Below, in pieces: positions 3,299-62,429 of a DNA stretch of 64,000 nucleotides. Under the pieces are notes generated by a model, which saw only the letters and a program-made list of their open reading frames with translations, searched no databases and was not told the DNA's origin. Made by a program: the position numbers and the translations under genes. How positions within the stretch are numbered: position 1 is the stretch's first letter; the number at the start of each line of letters is the position of its first letter. Source of the stretch: Okamejei kenojei (lineage: Eukaryota); NCBI GenBank assembly GCA_035221665.1, contig CM069136.1:52390001-52454000 (forward strand). Direction: 5' to 3'.

Positions 3299-3608
3299 AA
3301 CTAGTCGCGCGCTTGATGACGTCACTCACAACAATCGGTGCAGAGACGGCAGGCGGCAGGCAGCAGGCAGCAGGCAGCAGGTAGGTCCATTAATCCCCCG
3401 TTTTTTCCCGTTTTTTTCGCGGAGCTGGCTGGCGTTATCCTCTAGCCCTCCATAGCGCCACCGGAAGTCAAGTTGTTTTGTGTATGTATGGAGTGAGTAG
3501 GCAGTGGATGGAAGCTTCATTCAGAAAGGACAACCGATTCTAATCAAAGGTTGTTAAATTAGGAAAAGATTACTTTGAAATTTTGAAAATAATTATTTCC
3601 TCTTTTTT

Positions 3609-3833
3609 GTAGGAAGGAGCTGCAGATGCTGGTTTATACCAAAGACAGACACAAAATGTTGGAGTAACTCAGCGGGTCTGGCAGAAACTCTGGAGAAAAG
3701 GAATAGGCGATGTTTCGAGTCGGAACCCTTCCTCAGACTCAAAAGACCCTATCTGAGGAATGGTTGCATCCTGAAATGTCACCTATTCCTTTTATTCAGA
3801 GATGCTGAGTTACTCCAGCATTTTGTGTCTATC
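3609..3833. repeat. Head-to-head inverted dimer of the Penelope terminal-repeat unit
   Basis: Minus copy followed by plus copy; degenerate flanking duplication TATTT(A)CCTCTTTT. Confidence 0.75.
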
Positions 3834-4501
3834 TATTTACCTCTTTTGTATAGTTCTTCTTTTTCCAGTTTACCTGACCTATCTGCATTCCTCGCTCTCC
3901 ATGTTAATCAAGCTCAAGGCATTATAATTGTTCCTTTTCACGTTGCTAAAGTACAATTGGGAGAATTTGATGGTTGTTCTTTTCTATGATTTGAAATTTA
4001 AATCAAATACAGAAATAGAGAAGAGCAATTGAATTAGACCAATGGATCAGACCAATTACGTTAGTGCACATGTATATTCAAGTGAGCTAGATTGACAATT
4101 AAAGTCACTTCAGAGCGCCACTCGAATGAAACCTTTTATTTTATGGACTCTGATCATTTTAATCGCTTGTCTGAAGGCACAAATGCTAAACTGTATTAGC
4201 AGCTTGGTTTTTGTTCATATTACTATCAAACAAATAGAAGTCAATAACAGTTTCCTTTAATTAAAATGCAGGGAATTATTCCTTGTGGTTTCATGCGCTT
4301 GACAGCAATATCTGCCTGTAATCACTTTTAGTCTTTATCAATCCAAGAGACTGAATAGCATTGTTGGCCTGTATCCAAAAAGCACCTCAAACATCAATTG
4401 CGTTACAAATTAAATTACATTTTAATTATTAGGACATGGCTAATCGAACACACAATACCATCCAACTCATAATTTGCCTTGTTTGTTTATTGGCCACTCT
4501 T

Positions 4502-5542
4502 AGAAACATAGACATAGAAACATAGAAATATAGGTGCAGGAGTAGGGCATTCGGCCCTTCGAGCCTGCACCGTCATTCAATATGATCATGGCTGATCATC
4601 CAACTCAGTATCCCTTACCTGCCTTCTCTCCATACCTCCTGATCCCTTTAGCCACAAGGGCCACATCTAACTCCCTCTTAAATATAGCCAATGAACTGGC
4701 CTCAACTACCTTCTGTGGCAGAGAATTCCAGAGATTGTTTTCTCATCTCGGTTCTAAAAGATTTCCCCCTTATCCTTAAACTGTGACCCCTTGTCCTGGA
4801 CTTCCCCAACATCGGGAACAATCTTCCTGCATCTAGCCTGTCCAAACCCCTTAAGAATTTTGTAAGTTTCTATAAGATCCCCCCTCAATCTTCTAAATTC
4901 TAGTGAATACAAGCCGAGTCGATCCAGTCTTTCTTCATATGAAAGTCCTGACATCCCAGGAATCAGTCTGGTGAACCTTCTCTGTACTCCCTCTATGGCA
5001 AGAATGTCTTTCCTCAGATTTGGAGACCAAAACTGTACGCAATACTCCAGGTGTGGTCTCACCAAGACCCCGTACAACTGCAGTAGAACCTCCCTGCTGC
5101 TATACTCAAATCCTTTCGCTATGAATGCTAACATACCATTCGCTTTCTTCACTGCCTGCTGCACCTGCTGTACCATGACACCCAGGTCTCATTGCATCTC
5201 CCCTTTTCCTAATCGGCCACCATTCAGATAATAGTTTACCTTCCTGTTTTTACCACCAAAGTGGATAACCTCACATTTATCCACATTATACTGCATCTGC
5301 CATGCATTTGCCCACTCACTCAACCTATCCAAGTCACCTTGCAGCCTCCTAGCATCCTCCTCACAGCTAACACTGCCCCCCAGCTTCGTGTCATCCGCAA
5401 ACTTGGAGATGTTGCATTCAATTCCCTTGTCCAAATCATTAATATATATTGTAAATAGCTGGGGTCCCAGCACTGAGCCTTGAGGTACCCCACTAGTCAC
5501 TGCCTACCATTCTGAAAAGGACCCGTTTACTCCTACTCTTTG
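4502..5542 (-). mobile_element. CR1 LINE, 5'-truncated (RT C-terminal half plus 3' tail)
   Basis: SGVPQGSVLGPQLFTIYINDLD, KFADDTKL, LVRPHLEYCVQFWSP; (TATGTTTC)n-like tail at 4502-4532. Confidence 0.93.
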
Positions 5543-5620
5543 ATCAGTCAAAATCCCTTCGTCTTTAAATAGTTCTAAATCAAATTAACGTAAAGTATGC
5601 AATCTCAATATATTTATTTG

Positions 5621-5823
5621 TGTAGGAAGGAACTGCAAATGCTGGTTTAAATCGAAGATAGACAGAAAATGCTGGAGTAACTCAGCGGGACAGGCAGCAT
5701 CTCTGGAGAGCAAGAATGGGTGACGCAGTCTGAAGAAGGGTCTTGACCCGAAACATCACCCATTCCTTCTCTCCAGAGATGCTGCCTATCCAGCGGAATT
5801 ACCCCTGCATTTTGTGTCTATGT
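5621..5823. repeat. Inverted dimer of the Penelope terminal-repeat unit with 16-bp TSD
   Basis: TCAATATATTTATTTG at 5605-5620 and 5824-5839; complementary arms around the CTGAAGA...GAAAC core. Confidence 0.88.
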
Positions 5824-6009
5824 TCAATATATTTATTTGCCTGTTTTTTTTTTTCAGATATCATCTTTCAATCTCCCCACTCCTCATCTTAGCATGGTCT
5901 TGATTCTGTGAACATTCATGCTCCTATTCTCTGAAAATCTGGTCAGTTTAACAACTTGTGGTTGGCCTCCATTCACTCCTTACTCACTCCCTGCACACTC
6001 AGTGCAGTT

Positions 6010-9646: not shown

Positions 9647-10146
9647 NNNNNNNNNNNNNNNNNNNNNNNNNNNNNNNNNNNNNNNNNNNNNNNNNNNNNN
9701 NNNNNNNNNNNNNNNNNNNNNNNNNNNNNNNNNNNNNNNNNNNNNNNNNNNNNNNNNNNNNNNNNNNNNNNNNNNNNNNNNNNNNNNNNNNNNNNNNNNN
9801 NNNNNNNNNNNNNNNNNNNNNNNNNNNNNNNNNNNNNNNNNNNNNNNNNNNNNNNNNNNNNNNNNNNNNNNNNNNNNNNNNNNNNNNNNNNNNNNNNNNN
9901 NNNNNNNNNNNNNNNNNNNNNNNNNNNNNNNNNNNNNNNNNNNNNNNNNNNNNNNNNNNNNNNNNNNNNNNNNNNNNNNNNNNNNNNNNNNNNNNNNNNN
10001 NNNNNNNNNNNNNNNNNNNNNNNNNNNNNNNNNNNNNNNNNNNNNNNNNNNNNNNNNNNNNNNNNNNNNNNNNNNNNNNNNNNNNNNNNNNNNNNNNNNN
10101 NNNNNNNNNNNNNNNNNNNNNNNNNNNNNNNNNNNNNNNNNNNNNN
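9647..10146. other. Assembly gap (500 N)
   Basis: Run of N. Confidence 1.
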
Positions 10147-10179: not shown

Positions 10180-11610
10180 GCGCCATGGGCCCAAGCTACC
10201 TTGCCTTCTTTGTTGGGTACGCAACAATCCTTCTTCTCGGCGAACCAGGAGGCCCCATCCTCCGACATCTACCTCCGTTACATCGACTACTGCTTTGTGT
10301 CACCTCCTGCACCCACACACAACGACTGACTCATTCAATTCACCATCAACGACCATCCGGCACTCAAATACCTTGGACCTGTTCCGACATTTCCCCTAAC
10401 ATCCTTGACCTCACCATCTCTATTGCAGGGTACACTCTAAACGATCATCCACTACTAAACCCCACAGACTCCCTCAGCTACCTGGACTACTCTTCCTCCC
10501 ACCCTGCTTCCTGAAGGACTTCCATCCCCTATTCCCAATTCTTCGTCTACGCCGCATGTGCTCCCAGATGAGGTGTTCCACACCAGCATACACAAATGGC
10601 CCCACATTACATCAGAGAACGGATTCCCCTCCCCCACTATTGATGAGCTCGCACCAGGGTCTACCTCCATACCCGCAACACTGCCCTCTCTCCCCATTCC
10701 CCCACTCGCAAACAGGGCAGAGTCCCCCTGTCCTTACCTTTCACCCCACCAGCCAGCAATACAACCAGATAGACATCCGCCAGTTTCGCCACCTCCAACG
10801 TGCCCCCCTCCACCCCGCCACATTTCCATCACCCCCCCCTGTCTGCCTCCGCAAAGACCGCTTCCCACCGCAACTCCCTTGTCATTCTTCCCTCCCCACC
10901 CCTCTTAACATACTACCCCCTTCCCCCGGGCACTTTCCCTAGCATCCGCAAGAAATGCAACACTTGCCCCTTCACTCACCCCCCCTCCACACCTTTCAGG
11001 GACCCAAGCAGTCCTTCCAGGTTCCGACAGAGGTTCAACTGCACCGTCTCCCACCTCATATACTACTGCATCCGCTGCTCCAGATGCCAGATGATCTATA
11101 GCGGTGAGACCGAAGGCGGCGGAGGCATGGCGATCGTTTCCCGCCGAACACCTCCGCTCGTCCGCAAAAACACAACCCGACTCCCATTCCGTATCCAACC
11201 TCTTGGTCCGGGGACCTCCACCATGGCCAGAGTGAGCAAACCCGCCAAGTTGAGGAACAGCACCTCATATTTCCGCTGGGGAGTCAGCATCCTTTGGCTT
11301 TGAACATTGAATTTTCTCAATCCTGTAGCCCTTGCATCTCCCTCCCTCCCCTTCCCACCTCTCCTTAGCCCCGGGCCCTGGCATTCCCTCTACTCTCTAC
11401 TCCCTCCCCCACCCCTAGTCCACCAGATTCTCATTTTCACACCACAAACCAGCCTTACAATGGCTTGTTCCCTTTATCATCGATACTTTTTTGCTATCTT
11501 TCATTCATTGTTCTTTAACTCTCCACCATCTTAGTCTAATCACTCGTTTCCTTCCTGATCCCTGACCATCTGAAGAAGGGTCTCGACCCGAAACGTGTCG
11601 CCCTATCTCG
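10180..11610 (+). mobile_element. Penelope-like element (RT C-terminus, GIY-YIG, terminal repeat), heavily frameshifted
   Basis: Colinear with 37190-38540; CIRCSRCQMIYSGET; ends with CTGAAGAAGGGTCTCGACCCGAAAC. Confidence 0.88.
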
Positions 11611-37098: not shown

Positions 37099-38627
37099 AC
37101 CTCTACCTCCGTTACATCGACGACAAACCTCTACCTCCGTTACATCGACGACCAATCCTTGTTCTCGGTGTACCAGGGCCCCATCCCCGACCTCTACCTC
37201 CGTTACATCGACGACTGCTTTGGTGTCACCTCCTGCACCCACACACAACTGACTGACTTCATTCATTTCACCACCAACTTCCATCCGGCACTCAAATACA
37301 CTTGGACCATTTCCGACATTTCCCTACCATTCCTTGACCTCACCATCTCTATTGCAGGTGATACACTCCTGACCGACATCCACTACAAACCAACTGATTC
37401 CCACAGCTACCTGGACTACTCTTCCTCCCACCCTGCTTCCTGTAAGGACTCCATCCCCTATTCCCAATTCCTTCGTCTACGCCGCATCTGCTCCCAGGAT
37501 GAGGTGTTCCACACCAGGTCATCACAAATGGCCTCATTCTTCAGAGAACGGGGATTCCCCTCCCCCACTATTGATGAGGCTCGCACCAGGGTCTCCTCCA
37601 TACCCCGCAACACTGCCCTCTCTCCCCATTCCCCCACTCGCAAACAGGGCAGAGTCCCCCTGGTCCTCACCTTTCACCCCACCAGCCGGCAAATACAACA
37701 CATAGTCCTCCGCCAGTTTCGCCACCTCCAACGTGACCCCTCCACCCGCCACATCTTCCCATCTCCCCCCCTGTCTGCCTTCCACAAAGACCGCTCCCTC
37801 CGCAACTCCCTTGTCAATTCTTCCCTCCCCTCCTGCTCTACTCCTTCCCCGGGCACTTTCCCTTGCAACCGCAAGAAATGCAACACTTGTCCCTTCACCT
37901 CCCCCCTCCACTCCTTTCAGGGACACAAGCAGTCCTTCCAGGTTCGACAGAGGTTCACCTGCACCTCCTCCAACCTCATCTACTGCATCCGCTGCTCCAG
38001 ATGCCAGATGATCTATATCGGTGAGACCAAGCGGAGGCTTGGCGATCGTTTCGCCGAACACCTCCGCTCGGTCCGCAAAAACCAACCCGACCTCCCGGTG
38101 GCTCAGCACTCCAACTCCCCCTCCCATTCCGTATCCGACCTCTCGGTCCTGGGCCTCCTCCACGGCCAGAGTGAGTAACACCGCAAGTTGGAGGAACAGC
38201 ACCTCATATTCCGCTTGGGGAGTCTGCATCCTTTGGGCTTGAACATTGAATTTTCTCAATTCTGTTAACCCTTGCTGTCTCCTCCCCTTCCCACCTCTCC
38301 CTCAGCCCTTGGGCCCTGGCATTCCCTCTCTCTCTATCTCCCTCCCCCACCCGTCGCACTAGCTTCTCATTTTCACACCACAAACAGCTTACAATGGCTT
38401 GTTCCCTTTATCATCGATACTTTTTTGCATATCTTTCATTCATTGTTCTTTATCTCTCCACATCACCGTCTATATCTCTCGTTTCCCTGATCCCTGACCA
38501 GTCTGAAGAAGGGTCTCGACCCGAAACGTCGCCTATCTCCTTCGCTCCTTAGATGCTGCTGCACCCGCTGAGTTTCTCCAGCTTTTTGTGTAACCCTCGA
38601 TTCTCCAGCATCTGCAGTTCCTTCTTT
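37099..38627 (+). mobile_element. Penelope-like element (Neptune-type GIY-YIG), 5'-truncated, 11-bp TSD
   Basis: LRYIDDCF, FLDLTI, YKPTD, CNRKKCNTC linker, NLIYCIRCSRCQMIYIGETKRRLGDRFAEH; AACACTCTGTC at 37088-37098 and 38628-38638; one premature stop at 38176. Confidence 0.95.
38498..38535 (+). ncRNA. Minimal type-I hammerhead-ribozyme-like motif in the Penelope terminal repeat
   Basis: CTGAAGA-A-GGGTC-TC-GACCC-GAAA-CG-TC: core boxes, 5-bp stem II and palindromic ACGT minimal stem III; stem I is weak. Confidence 0.7.
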
Positions 38628-39906
38628 AACACTCTGTCGGATCTCATTTATTGGTGGCCCGATTCATAGGAGGTATTTAACAAAACCCTCCCAGACGTAG
38701 CTATTCGGAAATCTGGGATGTGAGCATAATTCTCACACTGCTTTGGCAATGGGCTCCAATTACATCTCTGCCTTTCCGGAAGTTAATGCTCAAAGTGGTC
38801 ATGTTCATGGTGCTAGTGGCAGCACTATGGGTCCAAATATTGCAAAAGTTATGACTGGACAGCATGCATTCTTCTGTAGATGATATTGTGTTTTATGCAT
38901 ATGATCTAATAAAATAGAGCAGGCCATGGATGGCTGGAACAAAAATAAGCTTAAAATATACCCATTGATCTAAGACTATATGTAATTACGCATCTGAGCT
39001 AACATATCAAGGTCATCAAGAGTCTCAGAGGCTCTGAAACAGCGATGCTCATCAGGCACATAAAACCTCATATAAAGGTGTCAGTACAAACTATTTCTAG
39101 ATGGCCGAAACAGGTTTGCATTATACTAGAGTAGACACTGATGTGTTTAAATCACTCCACCAGGGCGGCGTCAACGTACGCAGCAAAGGCACAGGACGTT
39201 CCATTAGACCAAACCCTCACCGTAGGATGGTCCAGTGAAGGTACCTTTTTCACGGTTTATGATAAACCTGTTCTTGCAATGCAAAGATTTGGGCATGCTG
39301 TTTTGGGTTCTGTTTGAGTTCTCCTTTGTAATTTCCCCTGCGAAATAGGGGTTATTACTGTTCTTTTATTGTTTAAGACGTTCATTGTATAACTTAAACA
39401 ATGTTCAATACATTATTTGTTTATCCTGTGTCAACCAAGGCAATATGTCGTATGGAACTGTAATCACAGAGCTTTGAAATCTTCACGTAGTCACTCACGT
39501 GACTCCAAAGTAAAATAGTAAGATTAAACGAGAACTTACCAGTTTGAAGTTTGATCCTAATTTTATGAGGAGTTACGATGCGGGATTACGTGCCCTCCGT
39601 TCCAGACCCTCGTAATCACAAAGATCATCTGGTAGTTCTAGTCTTCTGAGTCCTACTATATCACTTCGACTGTAGTTACTGTGATTTCATGCCGCTGTTT
39701 TGAAGATTGATGAGCATGTGCACTGGCGGGGCTTCTTCAAGTAATCCCTCATCGTAACTCCTCATAAAATACGGATCAAACTTCAAACTGGTAAGTTCTC
39801 ATTTAATCTTACTATTATAAATGTATTTAGTTAGGAGGGGAAAATGAGAATCATAGAATGGCAATATAATCCAATCAATCCACTTGAAAAATGGATGCCT
39901 GTGAGG

Positions 39907-43020: not shown

Positions 43021-43897
43021 GCTGAAATAGTAAATAGTTTTATACTATCTGATCACATATAATATTGCAGTTTTTTTCTTTATAAGTTGGCTATTAAATT
43101 TTTAATGCAACACAAAGGTATCACTCAGAAAATAATTTGGTGTAGAAATTCCATTAATTTGCCGCTTCACACTGCACACATTTGCGACTGACCCATTTTT
43201 AATTTATAAACAATTAAATATTAATAATTCAATGCCAGGGAAAGGGGATTTTTTATTACATTTCGAGGTATTGTAATTGGATGGAAATTATGGTTGAAAG
43301 TTCACAATCTGTTGCAAATATCTGACACAATCAGGATTCTGCAAATAATTAAAAGCACTCCAAATGTAATCATCACTGAAATATCCCGATGATTAACTGT
43401 TTCTTCATCCTATCATTTCGGTATGAATAATTAAGGGGTTCCTGTGCATGGTTTTGTTAAAGTTACAATTCTGAGAAATGTTATCTTGTAAAATGATCAA
43501 CACTCCGCTGTTGAGAGCTGTGATATTGTTTGAGAACTTAATTTGCAGAAGAGTCTTTGTGTTCACTTTTACTTTGTTAGGATTTGGATTTGTGCAACAG
43601 TATAAAGATTAATTCGGATAAAGGTGGACTAATCATCCACATTTGTCTTCCTTGGCATTGCTGAATGAGCATGAATGAATGAATGAGCATTGAACTTCAT
43701 CTAAGCTTGTACCTATTTTGACGGCAAACTCTTTAACTCAGGAATCATGACTGAGGAAATGTCTCATTTACCACAACTTTCTGACTTCATTGCAGGAGAA
43801 ATCCCGTCAGGTTTGGCTTGATTTTCACTGAACAAGAAACATGAAACATCACCTATTCTTTTTATCCAGAGATGCTGCCTGACCTGCTGAGTTGATG

Positions 43898-44121
43898 TGT
43901 AGGAAAGAACTGCAGATGCTGGTTTAAATCGACGATAGACACAAAATGCTGGAGTAACTCAGCGGGATAGGCCGCATCTCTGGAGAGAAGGAATGGGTAA
44001 CTTTTCAGGTCGAGACCCTTCTTCAGACTGTATGTCTCTTCGAGACACCTTCTTCAGACATTCCTTCTCTCCAGAGGTGTTGCCTGTCCCGCTGAGTTAC
44101 TCCAGCATTTTGTGTCTATCC
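43898..44121. repeat. Inverted dimer of the Penelope terminal-repeat unit with 12-bp TSD, inserted at the end of another such unit
   Basis: GCTGAGTTGATG at 43886-43897 and 44122-44133. Confidence 0.85.
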
Positions 44122-50547: not shown

Positions 50548-50760
50548 TGTGTAGGAAGGAACTGCAGATGCTGGTTTAAACCGAAGATAGACACAAAAAA
50601 CTGGAGTAACTCAGCGGGTCAGGCAGCATCTCTGGAGAAAAGGAATGCATGGCTTTTTGGGTCACAGCTGATGAAGAGTCTTGACCCAAAATATCATCTA
50701 TTCCTTTTCTCCAGAGATGTTGTCCGACCCGCTGAGTTACTCCAGCTTTTTGTGTCTATC
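50548..50760. repeat. Inverted dimer of the Penelope terminal-repeat unit
   Basis: Complementary arms; central CTGATGAAGAGTCTTGACCCAAAA; AT-rich flanking duplication. Confidence 0.85.
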
Positions 50761-52329
50761 TTATATATTTTATATCACAGATAAATTGTACCTACATTGT
50801 GAAAGAAATGCTTAACACAATAAATCTTCAATAACCCCATTATGATTTATTTCCACACTAAAATAATTCTCATATCAAACTAGTAGAGTGTCATTAATGG
50901 CCTATGCAAGGTTCGAATAATCACCTTCACACTAAGCCTGCTTGTTCCTATTTGTCTCACTTGCATTTATCTGTTTTGCAACATCAACCTCCCTAACATT
51001 GGTGATGAAATTCAAGTTTCTACATTAATGTGTTTCCTCCCTTCCATCTGTTACTCATAAAGGGTTGTGGTGTCAAATAATTCTCATATAAGTATGGCAT
51101 TAGTCATTATTATAAATCGATTAAAACACAATCCTATTTTATAAATGAGAGCTTGACACTTATTCATCATTGTCTAGTAACCTGAATTGTTGCATCAAGC
51201 TCCAACACACAACAAAGTCAGTGAAGATTTTGGAAAAAGCTACTGACTTAGAATTCCTTTATAATTAATCTACATACTTAAACGTTATCTAAGGTATGAA
51301 ATCAAAGGAACTTCTGGAGAACAAAGGTCAATATTTGGATGCAGAAATATAACATCATTAAAATAATTGCATCCAAAATTAGGATTTGTATTTAGTTCAA
51401 ACTTCTGGGCTTAATTATACTTGGAGGCTTGTAGCATTTTAACCACATTTCAGTCACAGGCAAGATGAATATTTAGCTTTAGCCAAGCTGGATGTGCACA
51501 TAATTTTAACCATCGTGTAATTTCAATACAATTACATTTCTTGATTTCTTGAATGAGTAAAGAGTAAAACATCTACTTTGGCAGATTACTGGCTAGGCAA
51601 TGAAGACAGAAATGTAAGGAATTTTAACTCTTGAACAGACACCAGATTCCAGGCGGACATTTTCACAAGTTATTGCATTTTTTATGACCCTGCAACAAAC
51701 CTAATACTACTGAATTCAAACCATTCAATAAGTCATCATATCTATTTATTATTAACAATGCACCATCAGTGACAATGTAGGTGGTGGAGTCATTGAGGGT
51801 GATTTCATTTTTTTTTCAGAATATAGTCGAAAGAAAAGTTATGGTACACGAATGTCCTCATATCTGTTGTTGGAAGCAAAAATACAAAAGTCTTTGGTTG
51901 TTGTACACTGCTTCTGAAATTAGATTTAATTGACTTTCATATTAAACAGAAATGCAAGTTAGAGGCAGTATTGATTCAGTTTCCTACTCCAAACCAAGGA
52001 AACTAAAACCAGGCAGCTTATTAATATTGGCTAACTTCACTATCACACAAGCTTAAACAAAGTTCAACATGTCCCTGAAAAGTTCAGTTATTCACAGTGC
52101 AAATAACTTGGAATCCTGGATATTTGTCAATATGAGCCATGATGAGTTTGTCAGGCACGCTGCAATTTTCCAGTCAATCACTGCTTACCAAAAGCATATC
52201 ACACAATTCCCAGGTTGAAGATTATGTCTTTCAGATTTAACATTTGCTTAGGTTTGTTGGTAAAATATTTGATTTGGCATAACGTGACTGAGATTGATCA
52301 TTTTATCCCCCGCATTTAATAAATATTTA

Positions 52330-52660
52330 TGGCCCTGTCCCACGGTATGAGTTCATTCCAAGAGCTCTCCCGAGTTAAAAAAATATCAAACTTGTGTTAA
52401 GCACGGAGAATGAACGTAGCGGGTACGTTTGAGCTCTGGAATGTCTCTTAGCGGCTCGTAATGCTAACGGCAGGTACTCGGGAAGACTCGCTAACGGCAG
52501 GTAAGCTCGGGAAGACTCTTGAAGATTTTTCAACATGTTGAAAAATGTCCACGAGAGCCCCGAATACTGACGAGCGGCCATTACTGTAAATTTCCGAGTT
52601 CGAATCAGGGCAAACTCGGGAGAGCTCTTGGAAAAAAACTCGTACCGTGGGACAGGGCCA
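52330..52660. mobile_element. MITE with long imperfect TIRs and TA flanks (superfamily uncertain; Harbinger-like ends)
   Basis: TA|TGGCCCTGTCCCACGGTA ... TACCGTGGGACAGGGCCA|TA; inner arms CCAAGAGCTCTCCCGAGTT / AACTCGGGAGAGCTCTTGG. Confidence 0.88.
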
Positions 52661-53074
52661 TAACTCAAAAAAATAGTACGCAGCAACTGTTTTTTATTTG
52701 AAGTGGTTTTGTGTACCTACCAGTAATAAAACAACAAACCACATGTTTTTTTCCACATGGTTTCTTTTGGTCAATGGATTTGGGAAGCAGGCAATATTGT
52801 TTGGAGGATACTCTTTTGAGACACAAATCTATTTAGTCTGTAATCCTTCTGTGACAATATAATCCAATGTCTATTGAATCTGTGTAATCTTTATGTGATA
52901 ATGTTAGTGTTGGCTGTTAATAACTCTTGCCACATTAATATACAGAGATGCTATTTTACTTGTGCACAACAACCATGACCTATTGCATACCCCAAATATA
53001 AACCCTCTTGTATACTCCTAAATAAACCAACAAAGGTTGGTCTTGTTCAAACAAACAAACAAACTATTGAGAGA

Positions 53075-54980
53075 ATGGATTTAGAGAGGGTGATACAGAC
53101 ATTATGATATATGGCAGATGGACTAGATAAGGGGTGAGCATTTTGCTCTGCATGGACAAGTTGGACCAAAGGGCCTGTTTCCATGCTGTATGACCCTATG
53201 ACACTATTACTCTACGGGTGGAAATGTCAAAGACTAAAGGGTATAGCTTTAAGGTAAAATGGTCAAAGTTTAAAAGATACTGTATGTGCAAGGCAAGTTT
53301 TTTACTCAGAGAGTTGTGGGTGCCTGGAATGCGCTCTCAGGGATGGTGGTGGAGGCAGATACGATAGGGGTATTTAAGTGGCTTTTGGATATGCACATGG
53401 ACATTGTGAATTGAGGGATTTGGATCATGTGCAGGCATTGGAGATGGGTTTAACTTTACATCATGTTCGGCACGGACATTTTCGGTCGAAGGGCCTGTTC
53501 CTGCGCTGTGCCGTTCCAAAATATAAGGTCATCCACTTTGGTAGAAAAAATAAAAAGTGGATTTTTTTTTAAAAGGCAAAGGATTGAAAAACATTGATGA
53601 TCAGAGGGATTACAGTGGCTTTCCATATGAATCATTGAAAATTAGTAGGTAGGTTCAACAAATGGTATGTTTCAGGAAGTTAAATTCTGGTATGACATAA
53701 AGCAAAGAACTCAATTGTTTAATCTTTCGATGGTGCTTGTATTGTCACATGTGCAAATGCTTAGTGAATTATTTTTCTTACATACAATTCAGTACAATAT
53801 TCCAATATCCAAGCACATCACTGATTAGCAAGTGTACAGAAATAGTCTACTCAGCCCGCATGCAAGAGATGCCATATTTTGGCACCATTTTCAAAGTCCA
53901 GTCTGCTCTCTAGTTCATATGAGCTGTGCCCAAAATTGAGCGGTGAATATTTGGAATAGGCTGAAGAGGAGGTAGTTGAGCTAGATATAATTACAATGTT
54001 TAAAAAGCATTTTAGAGGTACTTGGTTGGGAAGAGAACAGAGGGATACAGGCCTGATGCAGGCTCACAAGAGTAGTACAGATAGCAATCACAGCACCATG
54101 AAGGAATGGGCTGATAGAGCCTGTTTCTGTGCTGTACGTTTCTATGATTCCATGATAAGCCTCGAGTACAAGAGCAGAGATACCTTTTTACAATTACATG
54201 AAGCCTTTCTGATACCTCAGCTATAATATTGTGCAGAGGAGTAATCTCCCGAACCAAGGCGTGATAAACGTGATTGAAAATGTGCAGCAAAGATTCATTA
54301 GATTGATTCTTTGGATGGTTGGTTTGTTATATGAATAAAGATTGAACAGACAAGGCCTTTACTTGAAACGTTTTTAAGACTTTGCAAACCAACAGATCCT
54401 GAAATTTTGAAGTGTCAGAAAATGCTGGAACCACTCAGCAGGTCAGGCAGCATCTGTGGAAAGGGAAACAGAGTCAAAACCTGAAGTCCAAAACGTCTGA
54501 CAAATGGTTTCAAACATGGAGACTAGGCTCTATTTCTCTGTTCACAGGTGCTGCCTGATCTGCTGAGTATTTCCAGCATGTTTTGTTTGTATTTTAGGCT
54601 AGCACATTCTTGAGAAAGAGAGGTGATTTAATTAAGTTATGCACACTTTTTCCAGAATATGGAAGATGTATGGATAAAGTTTCCCTGTCTGTGGTGTTTA
54701 GAATCGGCAGCAACTATCACAAAATGCAGAGCGAGGCATTCTAGACAGGGATAAGATCGAACTTCTTCACTCAAAACGCAATGCAGGCTGATGGAACTAT
54801 GTCCCCACAGTACCAGAGATTTGGGTTGGATCCTGAACCCAAGTGCGGTCTGTGTGGAGTTTATACGTTCTCCCTATGACCACGTGGGTTTCTTTTGGTA
54901 GCACTGGTTTCCTCCCACATTCCAAAGTTATGCTGGCTCGTGTGTTAATTGGCCTCTGTAAAATGGCCCAGAATGTGTAA
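53075..54980. repeat. Cluster of old CR1 fragments, a diverged inverted terminal-repeat dimer (54415-54590) and a SINE fragment
   Basis: CR1 3' motifs (FTQRVVGAWNAL, KVIHFGRKN, LEYKSRD). Confidence 0.65.
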
Positions 54981-60749: not shown

Positions 60750-62008
60750 TTCAGTTTAGTTTATTGTCATGTGTACCGAGGTACAGTGCAAAGCTTTTGT
60801 TGCATGCTAACCACTCAGCGGAAAGACGTTAAATGATTACTATCGATCCATCCACAGTGTACAGATACATGATAAAGGGAATGACGTTTAGCGCAAGATA
60901 AAGTCCAGTAAAGTCCGATTAAAGATAATCCGAGGGTCTCCAAAAAGTTAAATAGTAGCTCAAGACCTTGCTCTAGATGTTGATAGAATGGCACAGTTGC
61001 TTGCTAACAGCTGGGAAGAAACGTTCCCTGAACCGGAGGTGTGCGTTTTCACACTTCTGTACCTCTTGCCAGCATTACGTGCAGGAAGGAATTGCAGATG
61101 CTGGTTTACGCCGAAGATAGACACAAAGTGCAAGAGCAACTCAGCGGCCCAGGCAGGAAAGGAATAGAGTTTGGGTTGAGATCCTTCTTCAGACTCTTCT
61201 TCAGTATTACATAACATTCAACTAACAAACTGATTTTCACCCTCAATGCCCGTGTGTGGTGAATCATGTTCTTTATCAAACTCAAATGAATTTACTCCTT
61301 TGAAGTCAACTCAGGTAAACCATTTTGTGAGCAAATAATTCTCTCTGGTTTTGAAAGCTTGGCAGTAAACACAATAATCCACCAAGTATCTTGTCATATT
61401 TAATTATTGGCTATGTTTGTAGTATGTCACATATTAGCTAAAATCAAAAATGCACTACATAAGTATATTAATTGGCTTATAGCACACACATTTAAAAAGG
61501 CAGCCGCAAACAGCTAAGGATGACCTGAAATGTGGTAGTACCAAGCAGAAGTAGCCCAACCACTGTCATTGCACTGGACAAGTAGACTGATTAAATAACT
61601 AATCCAACACTACAGTGCTAGAGTTGTCGGAAGGAACCTACAGATGCTGATTTATGCCAAAGATAGACACAAAGTGCTGAAGTAATTCAGTGAGTCAGGC
61701 AGCATCTCTGAAGAAAAGTTGTTTTGTGTCGGAAACCTACTTCTTCTTGGAGAATGGAGGCAGGTACAACAAGTGATGAACTGGAATAAGTATGAAGGAG
61801 ACAAAGATGTTTTAGCCACTGGGGGTGCAATTATCACCTAGGCATTAGGAAGAGAGGGAAGAGAGCAAATTTCATTGTTTGGTGACACTTTGTGAAGATA
61901 CCCAACTTATGGCTGGTCGAAGAAAGGTCTTGACCCGAAATGTCACCCATTCCTTCTCTCCAGAGATGCTGCCTGTCCCTCTGAGTTACTCCAGCATTTT
62001 GTGTCTAT
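60750..62008. repeat. Rex1-like 3' fragment (60750-61070 -) and Penelope terminal-repeat units (61080-61195 -, 61627-61750 -, 61915-62008 +)
   Basis: Similarity to other copies in the window. Confidence 0.7.
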
Positions 62009-62429
62009 TATGGATGGCAGAGTTGATTTGAAGACCATGTAACCTGCTGTTCATTTCTTAAGCTCTTCTTTGCTGGAAACGCACAAAGCCATGCACGGTT
62101 TAGACAGGATAAATGCAGGAAAGTAAATTCCATTAGTACATTGTTCAAGGGGCAGTGGACACAGATTTAAAAGCCCGGGTAAAGAAAAGATTAATGTAAT
62201 AAGAGAAGAATTATCTTAACAGCAGATTATAATAATGATTGCACAGAGTTACTGTATGTATGTCGAGCAGGATGAACCATAAACTGATTAAAATAGAAGA
62301 TGAAGGTTTAATCCTAGATATTTGATACTATTTTGACTAATCATGGACTAATACTTTGGTCATATGAAACTAATATTTTATTTATTTTGAGATGATTAAT
62401 TATTCCATTATTGGAATATATCCATCATT

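Follow-up and report, generated by a model that had tools for sequence, protein, structure and literature searches.

The locus at positions 5605 to 5839 of the analysed window (the whole 64,000-nt stretch of Okamejei kenojei contig CM069136.1) raises the question of whether its two inverted copies of a short repeat arrived together, from which RNA they were copied, and by what route. The hairpin is probably the result of a single insertion of two short opposed copies of the terminal unit of a Penelope-like element (PLE), with twin-primed run-off as the likely route, and its likely source is the beginning of the element RNA, copied twice over a short length, not a separate family of ribozyme-cut RNAs. 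Its parts are as follows, with positions in the unit counted along a 135-nt repeat and TSD standing for target-site duplication:

5605–5620, no strand: left TSD copy, 16 bp, identical to the 16-mer at 5824–5839
5621–5725, minus strand: tailed arm, unit positions about 134 to 29, without the hammerhead core
5726–5823, plus strand: arm without the tail, spanning the unit from position 1 to about 98
5730–5757, plus strand: minimal type I hammerhead core and stem II, predicted cut after 5757
5824–5839, no strand: right TSD copy, 16 bp, identical to 5605–5620

The two arms are joined bluntly at 5725/5726 inside a perfect 16-bp TSD, as a preliminary description of this DNA had proposed; the final one or two bases of the left TSD copy also match the end of the element's tail. 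The same description had both arms meeting at the CTGAAGA..GAAAC core, which holds for the plus arm and not for the minus arm, which ends at position 29. The hammerhead motif follows the definition of PMC4209133, and the core was located in the sequence. In the fold prediction, stem II forms and the 3′ strand of helix I is locked within the long hairpin, while a G>A change at 5755 abolishes the palindrome required for a dimeric helix III. The hairpin itself folds at −98.8 kcal/mol (z = −9.9), a stability equalled by none of 200 shuffles. An Rfam scan of the window returned no match to a hammerhead model, and its three sub-threshold miRNA matches were set aside as chance hairpin matches. Just behind the hairpin, a T-run and an AG acceptor-like site 19 nt past the TSD, together with a donor-like site near 5943, make 5845–5945 a possible small-exon candidate on sequence features, for which the one RNA run analysed gave no support. 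On the other side, the dimer is adjoined by a high-copy repeat of about 1 kb (4496–5534), presumably a LINE; since a contig of organism C runs from 4495 to 5535 without this repeat, the repeat is younger than the focal dimer.

The source of the arms is best approached through the longer copies of the unit. Its sequence context shows that the unit forms the 3′ terminus as well as the 5′ terminus of an autonomous PLE with the domain features of the Neptune/Nematis group, provisionally of Neptune type. In long copies the 3′ UTR is followed by the unit, and an ORF with RT and GIY-YIG frames lies upstream of it; the majority sequence carries RT motifs, a CX4CxxC linker and GIY-YIG in a single frame, with two cysteines within the GIY-YIG core. 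Such a linker and a GIY-YIG domain after the RT are Neptune/Nematis features (PMC8557442), and several genomic copies show the combination that the part of that paper drawn on here gives for EN+ PLEs (Neptune/Nematis). Pfam recognized GIY-YIG in one of three fragments (E 4e-4, under the gathering cut-off), and three homologues bear RVT_1 and/or GIY-YIG annotations, the best of them carrying RVT_1 (E 2e-57). The sampled parent copies are decayed (they match the majority sequence at about 85% identity), and none showed an intact ORF. At the other end, 30 loci with the 5′ body were examined, and 17 of them have a unit that begins at position 11 or lower and is joined to this body ahead of the ORF; by eye, seven of these 17 halt at unit positions 1–5 without a UTR, and some of the remainder carry upstream UTR, as in a partial tandem. 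In locus L140 a unit tail adjoining the ORF had been considered as the element's 5′ end and turned out to be a separate insertion. The Penelope origin that the preliminary description assigned to the arms is thus supported by an RT/GIY-YIG parent bearing the unit at both ends.

The unit is shared by several UTR subfamilies. One of them comprises 38499–38630 and 11569–11598 in the window and loci L204, L077, L079, L055, L160 and L004, with 400 nt of near-identical upstream sequence, and is apparently the youngest PLE lineage sampled. In loci L224, L226, L237 and L239, on three contigs, a tail-less unit interrupts the ORF at one and the same site and is accompanied by a duplication of about 14 bp, a pattern that suggests segmental duplication or re-mobilization of an interrupted copy. 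An early idea that long copies always bear a short inverted arm was abandoned, as only 6 of 57 long RT/EN-bearing copies have an inverted unit within 120 nt of the 5′ break, fewer than the run-off route proposed below might lead one to expect. Spaced inverted pairs show an element-derived spacer or a TSD in only 19 of 53 cases, which also counts against that route; in locus L053, inverted units 243 nt apart lie in a perfect 15-bp TSD, and the spacer, without a match to the element library, is possibly captured foreign sequence.

The window holds 30 copies of the unit, among which further minus-plus pairs were delimited:

3608–3834, minus then plus: second dimer, in which 12 nt of filler separate a tailed minus arm (133 to 2) from a plus arm (4 to 98); 8-bp exact TSD
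43897–44120, minus then plus: third dimer, in which a minus arm (134 to 1) and a short plus arm are separated by filler; perfect 12-bp TSD
50549–50762, minus then plus: fourth dimer, pairing a minus arm that spans 134 to 19 with a plus arm that spans 5 to about 98; 14-bp TSD with one mismatch, in AT-rich sequence
54390–54598, head-to-head: older diverged pair; no TSD above chance (score 5)
61626–62016, minus then plus: two units with a 175-nt spacer; neither a score-8 TSD nor an element-derived spacer found

The recurrence claimed at the outset therefore stands for the second, third and fourth dimers, with TSDs of 8, 12 and 14 bp, and is unproven for the two looser pairs as single-event dimers. 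The third dimer was inserted where an older fragment of the unit (43839–43893) ends. Other features of the window were also recorded. Among 134 unmasked stop-to-stop frames, the search for a host gene gave two retroelement matches, two weak matches and no convincing exon; a GC-rich stretch on the plus strand (3420–3510) contains an ETS-like motif and a donor-like site and would resemble a promoter and first exon. Two related elements, at 39511–39819 and 26294–26555, have inverted termini of 82 nt and 56 nt that are 93–95% complementary; they are MITE-like and unrelated to the PLE unit. In addition, 52327–52663, with 27-nt terminal inverted repeats 283 nt apart, is likely a non-autonomous DNA transposon. 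Positions 9647–10146 are a run of 500 N.

Beyond the window, 120 loci of 10 kb each (1.2 Mb), taken at round coordinates on large contigs of the 2.76-Gb genome, yielded 531 unit matches, a density of about 450 per Mb. Among tight pairs (no more than 60 nt apart), 93 were head-to-head (minus-plus), and the remaining orientations had 13 (tail-to-tail), 8 and 10, the last two making up the 18 same-strand pairs; random placement gave a mean of 5.2 head-to-head pairs and a maximum of 15 in 2000 runs. In a held-out 200 kb there were 19 tight head-to-head pairs against 4. Rough extrapolation from 1.4 Mb points to about 1.2 million units and about 220,000 tight dimers per genome, the latter making up 36% of matches. 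The high abundance anticipated for the dimers is borne out, and their frequency, which had been set against that of independent solo insertions, is not matched by chance (93 observed, about 5 expected).

The evidence that each dimer represents one insertion event comes from 98 dimers, 93 sampled and 5 in the window, of which 96 could be scored for a TSD. A TSD score of at least 8 was reached by 33 of the 96, compared with 5 of 380 mismatched flank pairs, and by 29 of 58 dimers with intact ends; the TSD measures 8–16 bp in 32 of the 33, and dimer TSDs are 65% AT. About two thirds of the dimers have no TSD at this score, and the rate varies weakly with age (13, 12 and 8 of 32). Exactly one tailed arm was found in 66 of 78 resolved pairs of the discovery set and in 13 of 21 in later sets (p 0.18 alone); pooled, one 35-nt tail is present in 79 of 99 resolved dimers, against 49.5% expected from solos (p 5e-10). 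The arms of a dimer also resemble each other more than expected, with an identity of 0.838 against 0.776 for permuted mates (maximum 0.793 of 2000; 77 of 98 pairs), and such concordance is absent from ordinary neighbouring units (0.773, n = 206). Within subfamilies, 63 of 710 non-CpG variants are shared between arms, against a null of 4.1% (p 0.0005; 110 of 134 dimers), and CpG sites show no excess of sharing (p 0.37). Sharing of non-CpG variants and not of CpG decay argues against later conversion, and the arms fit a common source followed by independent ageing. Because of the TSDs, the single 35-nt tail and the arms of the same subfamily, the dimers are read as single events, as had been proposed. 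With regard to age, the left TSD of the focal dimer and the beginning of its arm are also present in organism C, and the 3608 dimer has its right end in common with organisms B and C, so that both insertions predate those splits at the ends tested; empty orthologous sites were not seen in three DNA contig sets of other organisms. In summary, the dimers are real, abundant, single-event PLE relics, and are neither a retrozyme nor a MITE.

As to the route, a staggered cut in the target would provide two primers, and both strands would prime at the element's two RT start sites; each cDNA would then reach the 5′ end of the mRNA (run-off) or stop early, and the cDNA ends would be joined. The steps of this scheme differ in strength. 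The two 3′ ends of the unit copies (about 96–100 and 134) are very probably sites at which the RT starts, to judge from the green anole element Poseidon PAc, in which two internal RT start sites bound the tail and both strands are nicked and extended (PMC11167929). Unit-only solos carry a TSD with the tail (10 of 36) or without it (22 of 62), together 32 of 98 against a null of 1 of 196, and both 3′ ends are accordingly real start points. Priming by both target strands is considered highly probable, and it is quite likely that an end-joining process, marked by microhomology, filler or a varying loss, unites the cDNA ends; it is reasonably likely that the fixed 5′ end corresponds to a capped start in an initiator-like motif and that the short arms are run-off cDNAs from the 5′ unit of the mRNA. 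PAc also resembles the present family in its AT-rich targets and in the hammerhead at its pLTR–ORF junction, which is dispensable for insertion, cleavage not being needed, and its protein is a predicted dimer (PMC11167929). Nevertheless, PAc belongs to a different clade, its first ATG lies in stem II whereas here the first plausible ATG is at position 170, downstream of the tail, and the sections of PMC11167929 drawn on here do not describe inverted products or a run-off 5′ end for it. L1 twin priming, in which both target strands prime and a 5′ inversion arises within one TSD, differs in that the two L1 arms derive from separate parts of a single RNA; in the present dimers one segment is copied into both arms, which would call for strand displacement or a second template.

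The fixed 5′ end is visible in both classes of copies: unit positions 1–7 are the starting point of 95 among 196 arms of dimers and of 237 among 365 other copies, and arms usually stop at about position 2–5. In 26 of 98 dimers both arms begin beyond position 6, which would need resection or early stops. In 133 solos without UTR, the number of copies matching the unit drops between position 2 (82) and position 1 (47), and in 68 UTR-bearing solos the same positions have 59 and 54 matches. The base preceding AGTC was, besides 23 C, G in 15, A in 10 and T in 2 copies, a G excess significant in a post hoc test (p 0.001) and weakly replicated (7 of 14, p 0.044); at the focal junction this base is C, not G. 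The motif at this end would fit an initiator consensus, and internal promoters with initiator-like motifs are described for Penelope pLTRs (PMC2377424, PMC3846280). The fixed end is interpreted, with moderate confidence, as the capped 5′ end of the RNA. In the one RNA run analysed (X21, organism I, polyA, about 6% read), there was no pile-up of starts or ends on the unit, which was covered about equally on both strands with almost no reads on unique flanks; only 397 of 36,043 reads were 99% alike, and A>G was seen at 42 and T>C at 43 places, signals that are not locus-specific.

The main rival to a capped end keeps the twin-primed single insertion and explains the fixed 5′ end by splicing at an acceptor located there or by stalling of the RT. 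A splice acceptor agrees with the pyrimidine tract and CAG found right before the core in every UTR subfamily, and with the 3′ end of a D. virilis intron that maps to hammerhead helix I (PMC4209133). However, no upstream exon common to the UTR-less copies was found and their upstream 6-mers are diverse, identity still holds at the A and G that precede the putative acceptor cut, the G excess lies one base further upstream, and 86 of 219 solos with an intact start continue into UTR-like sequence, all of which makes this reading unlikely, and the capped end is retained.

The junctions between the arms bear on a second alternative, in which one cDNA, or an antisense template, would fold at a palindrome and copy itself, as proposed for rotifer head-to-head PLE junctions with palindromes (PMC3846280). 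That the central junction differs from copy to copy, as first noted, was confirmed, only two combinations of start, start and gap recurring among 96 junctions. One of them occurs five times, on a 7-nt palindrome at position 1, in line with fold-back, as is a modest enrichment of overlaps of at least 4 nt (34 of 96, against 145 of 579 simulated blunt joints, p 0.045), and self-copying also predicts variants common to both arms. On the other hand, gaps longer than 5 nt are present in 27 of 96 junctions against 7 of 579 simulated ones, and the tail-less end also occurs in TSD-flanked solos. Moreover, in 39 of 79 one-tailed dimers, the focal one included, the tail-less arm extends at least 6 nt further 5′ than the tailed arm, which implies that neither arm was copied from the other and that a simple fold-back fails. 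As sole route it is excluded, unless the arms were trimmed after copying, and overall it is improbable; twin priming, one of the two routes initially suggested, is the likelier. Fillers of at least 8 nt showed exact matches of at least 8 nt to the arms in 3 of 24 cases and of at least 7 nt to the flanks in 3 of 24, near shuffle levels, and on reading the 96 junctions none evidently rebuilds a long helix I from the inverted arm.

The preliminary description had seen in these dimers a retrozyme-like non-autonomous family, that is, a short retrozyme- or SINE-like RNA, processed by its hammerhead and mobilized in trans by a PLE. The family does share with metazoan non-LTR retrozymes its short, ORF-less copies, a type I hammerhead and a PLE relationship (PMC7229834; bioRxiv 10.64898/2026.07.22.740005), animal retrozymes being reported as PLE derivatives (bioRxiv 10.64898/2026.07.22.740005). 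The majority of copies are unit-only and might retain an internal promoter and serve as template, and pLTR sequences alone can work in trans (PMC3846280). This interpretation was not upheld. Ends do not accumulate at the cut site in 196 arms and 365 solos: starts at positions 30–36, around the predicted cut after 32, number 8 and 9, respectively, no more than in neighbouring bins, and dimer arms start about 30 nt upstream of the site. Retrozymes consist of tandem repeats on one strand, from which monomers and circles are cut, whereas here the pairs are inverted, with the two cores facing away on opposite strands, and tight same-strand pairs are rare (18 against 93). Minimal hammerheads require same-strand dimers and cleave poorly (PMC4209133). 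The majority sequence has the core and stem II, with a helix I of only 2 bp by eye; the core is intact in 110 of 255 copies spanning it, and core, stem II and palindromic helix III are all kept in only 11 of 79 core-spanning dimer arms. Finally, a coarse typing at 11 sites of 329 copies found all four unit haplotypes in dimers, solos and UTR-bearing copies, with no dimer-specific haplotype, and every dimer-making subfamily also has long copies. A retrozyme-like origin is therefore very improbable, and under the preferred twin-primed insertion the hammerhead would be a passenger in dimer copies.

The least tenable explanation, of independent neighbouring solo insertions or of a dimer moving as a DNA MITE, can appeal to the high unit density and to units inserted into older units (43839–43897), but the 18-fold excess of one orientation, the TSDs enclosing both arms and the arm concordance missing from ordinary neighbours refute independent insertion for most tight pairs (about 5 of 93 being expected by chance), and asymmetric ends, TSDs of 8–16 bp and junctions that are not inherited, nearly all of them different, lead to rejection of the MITE.

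The twin-primed dimers have clear relatives among known PLEs. The typical PLE layout comprises an inverted 5′-truncated copy and a one-sided tail (PMC8557442), and Pen2a_Av combines the inverted layout with a 9-bp TSD (PMC3846280); in the present family the pLTR was seen on either side of the ORF, with an inverted truncated copy, a one-sided tail, a variable TSD and a minimal hammerhead. As in Pen2a_Av and Pen2 of Adineta and in Penelope of D. virilis, a head-to-head inverted terminal repeat lies at the 5′ side (PMC3846280, PMC8557442, PMC2377424), and those elements likewise have a 30–40 bp tail at one end, a TSD of 8–10 bp or more and a hammerhead in the pLTR. Unlike in them, as far as the parts of these papers drawn on go, the arms here are usually no longer than 135 nt, no body lies between them, an estimated 220,000 copies exist, and the arms share a sharp 5′ end just ahead of the hammerhead core. 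Close opposite-strand pairs of minimal hammerheads, mostly read as truncated PLE remains, are also known from Schistosoma mansoni, where they are 100–700 bp apart and not dissected in the part of PMC4209133 drawn on, whereas here the arms abut. The architecture has thus already been published for PLEs, and the dimers are its shortest form.

What these dimers add is the mechanistic footprint, chiefly the link between the short arms and the element's 5′ end; no account of PLEs in skate, or in terms of run-off, strong-stop or twin priming, was found in the open-access literature. The formation of tandem and inverted PLE ends and of the tail is described as open (PMC8557442, PMC11167929), and these minimal insertions yield statistics that bear on it, namely a single tail for each event, arms that are not nested, and a fixed 5′ end that lies upstream of the hammerhead and has a possible cap-derived G. 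The run-off model, if true, ties two-site initiation in vitro to genomic structure. In practical terms, annotation could mistake some 220,000 hairpins for microRNAs or MITEs, and they might supply dsRNA. It is tentatively suggested that they represent a strong-stop-like product of PLEs, in which a protein dimer would cut both strands and two cDNAs, begun on the 5′ unit with each start site used once, would run off the cap and be joined head to head. If this is so, one strong-stop-like reaction would account for the inverted pLTR and the tail as well as for about one million unit-only relics in this genome, the roughly 220,000 hairpins among them.
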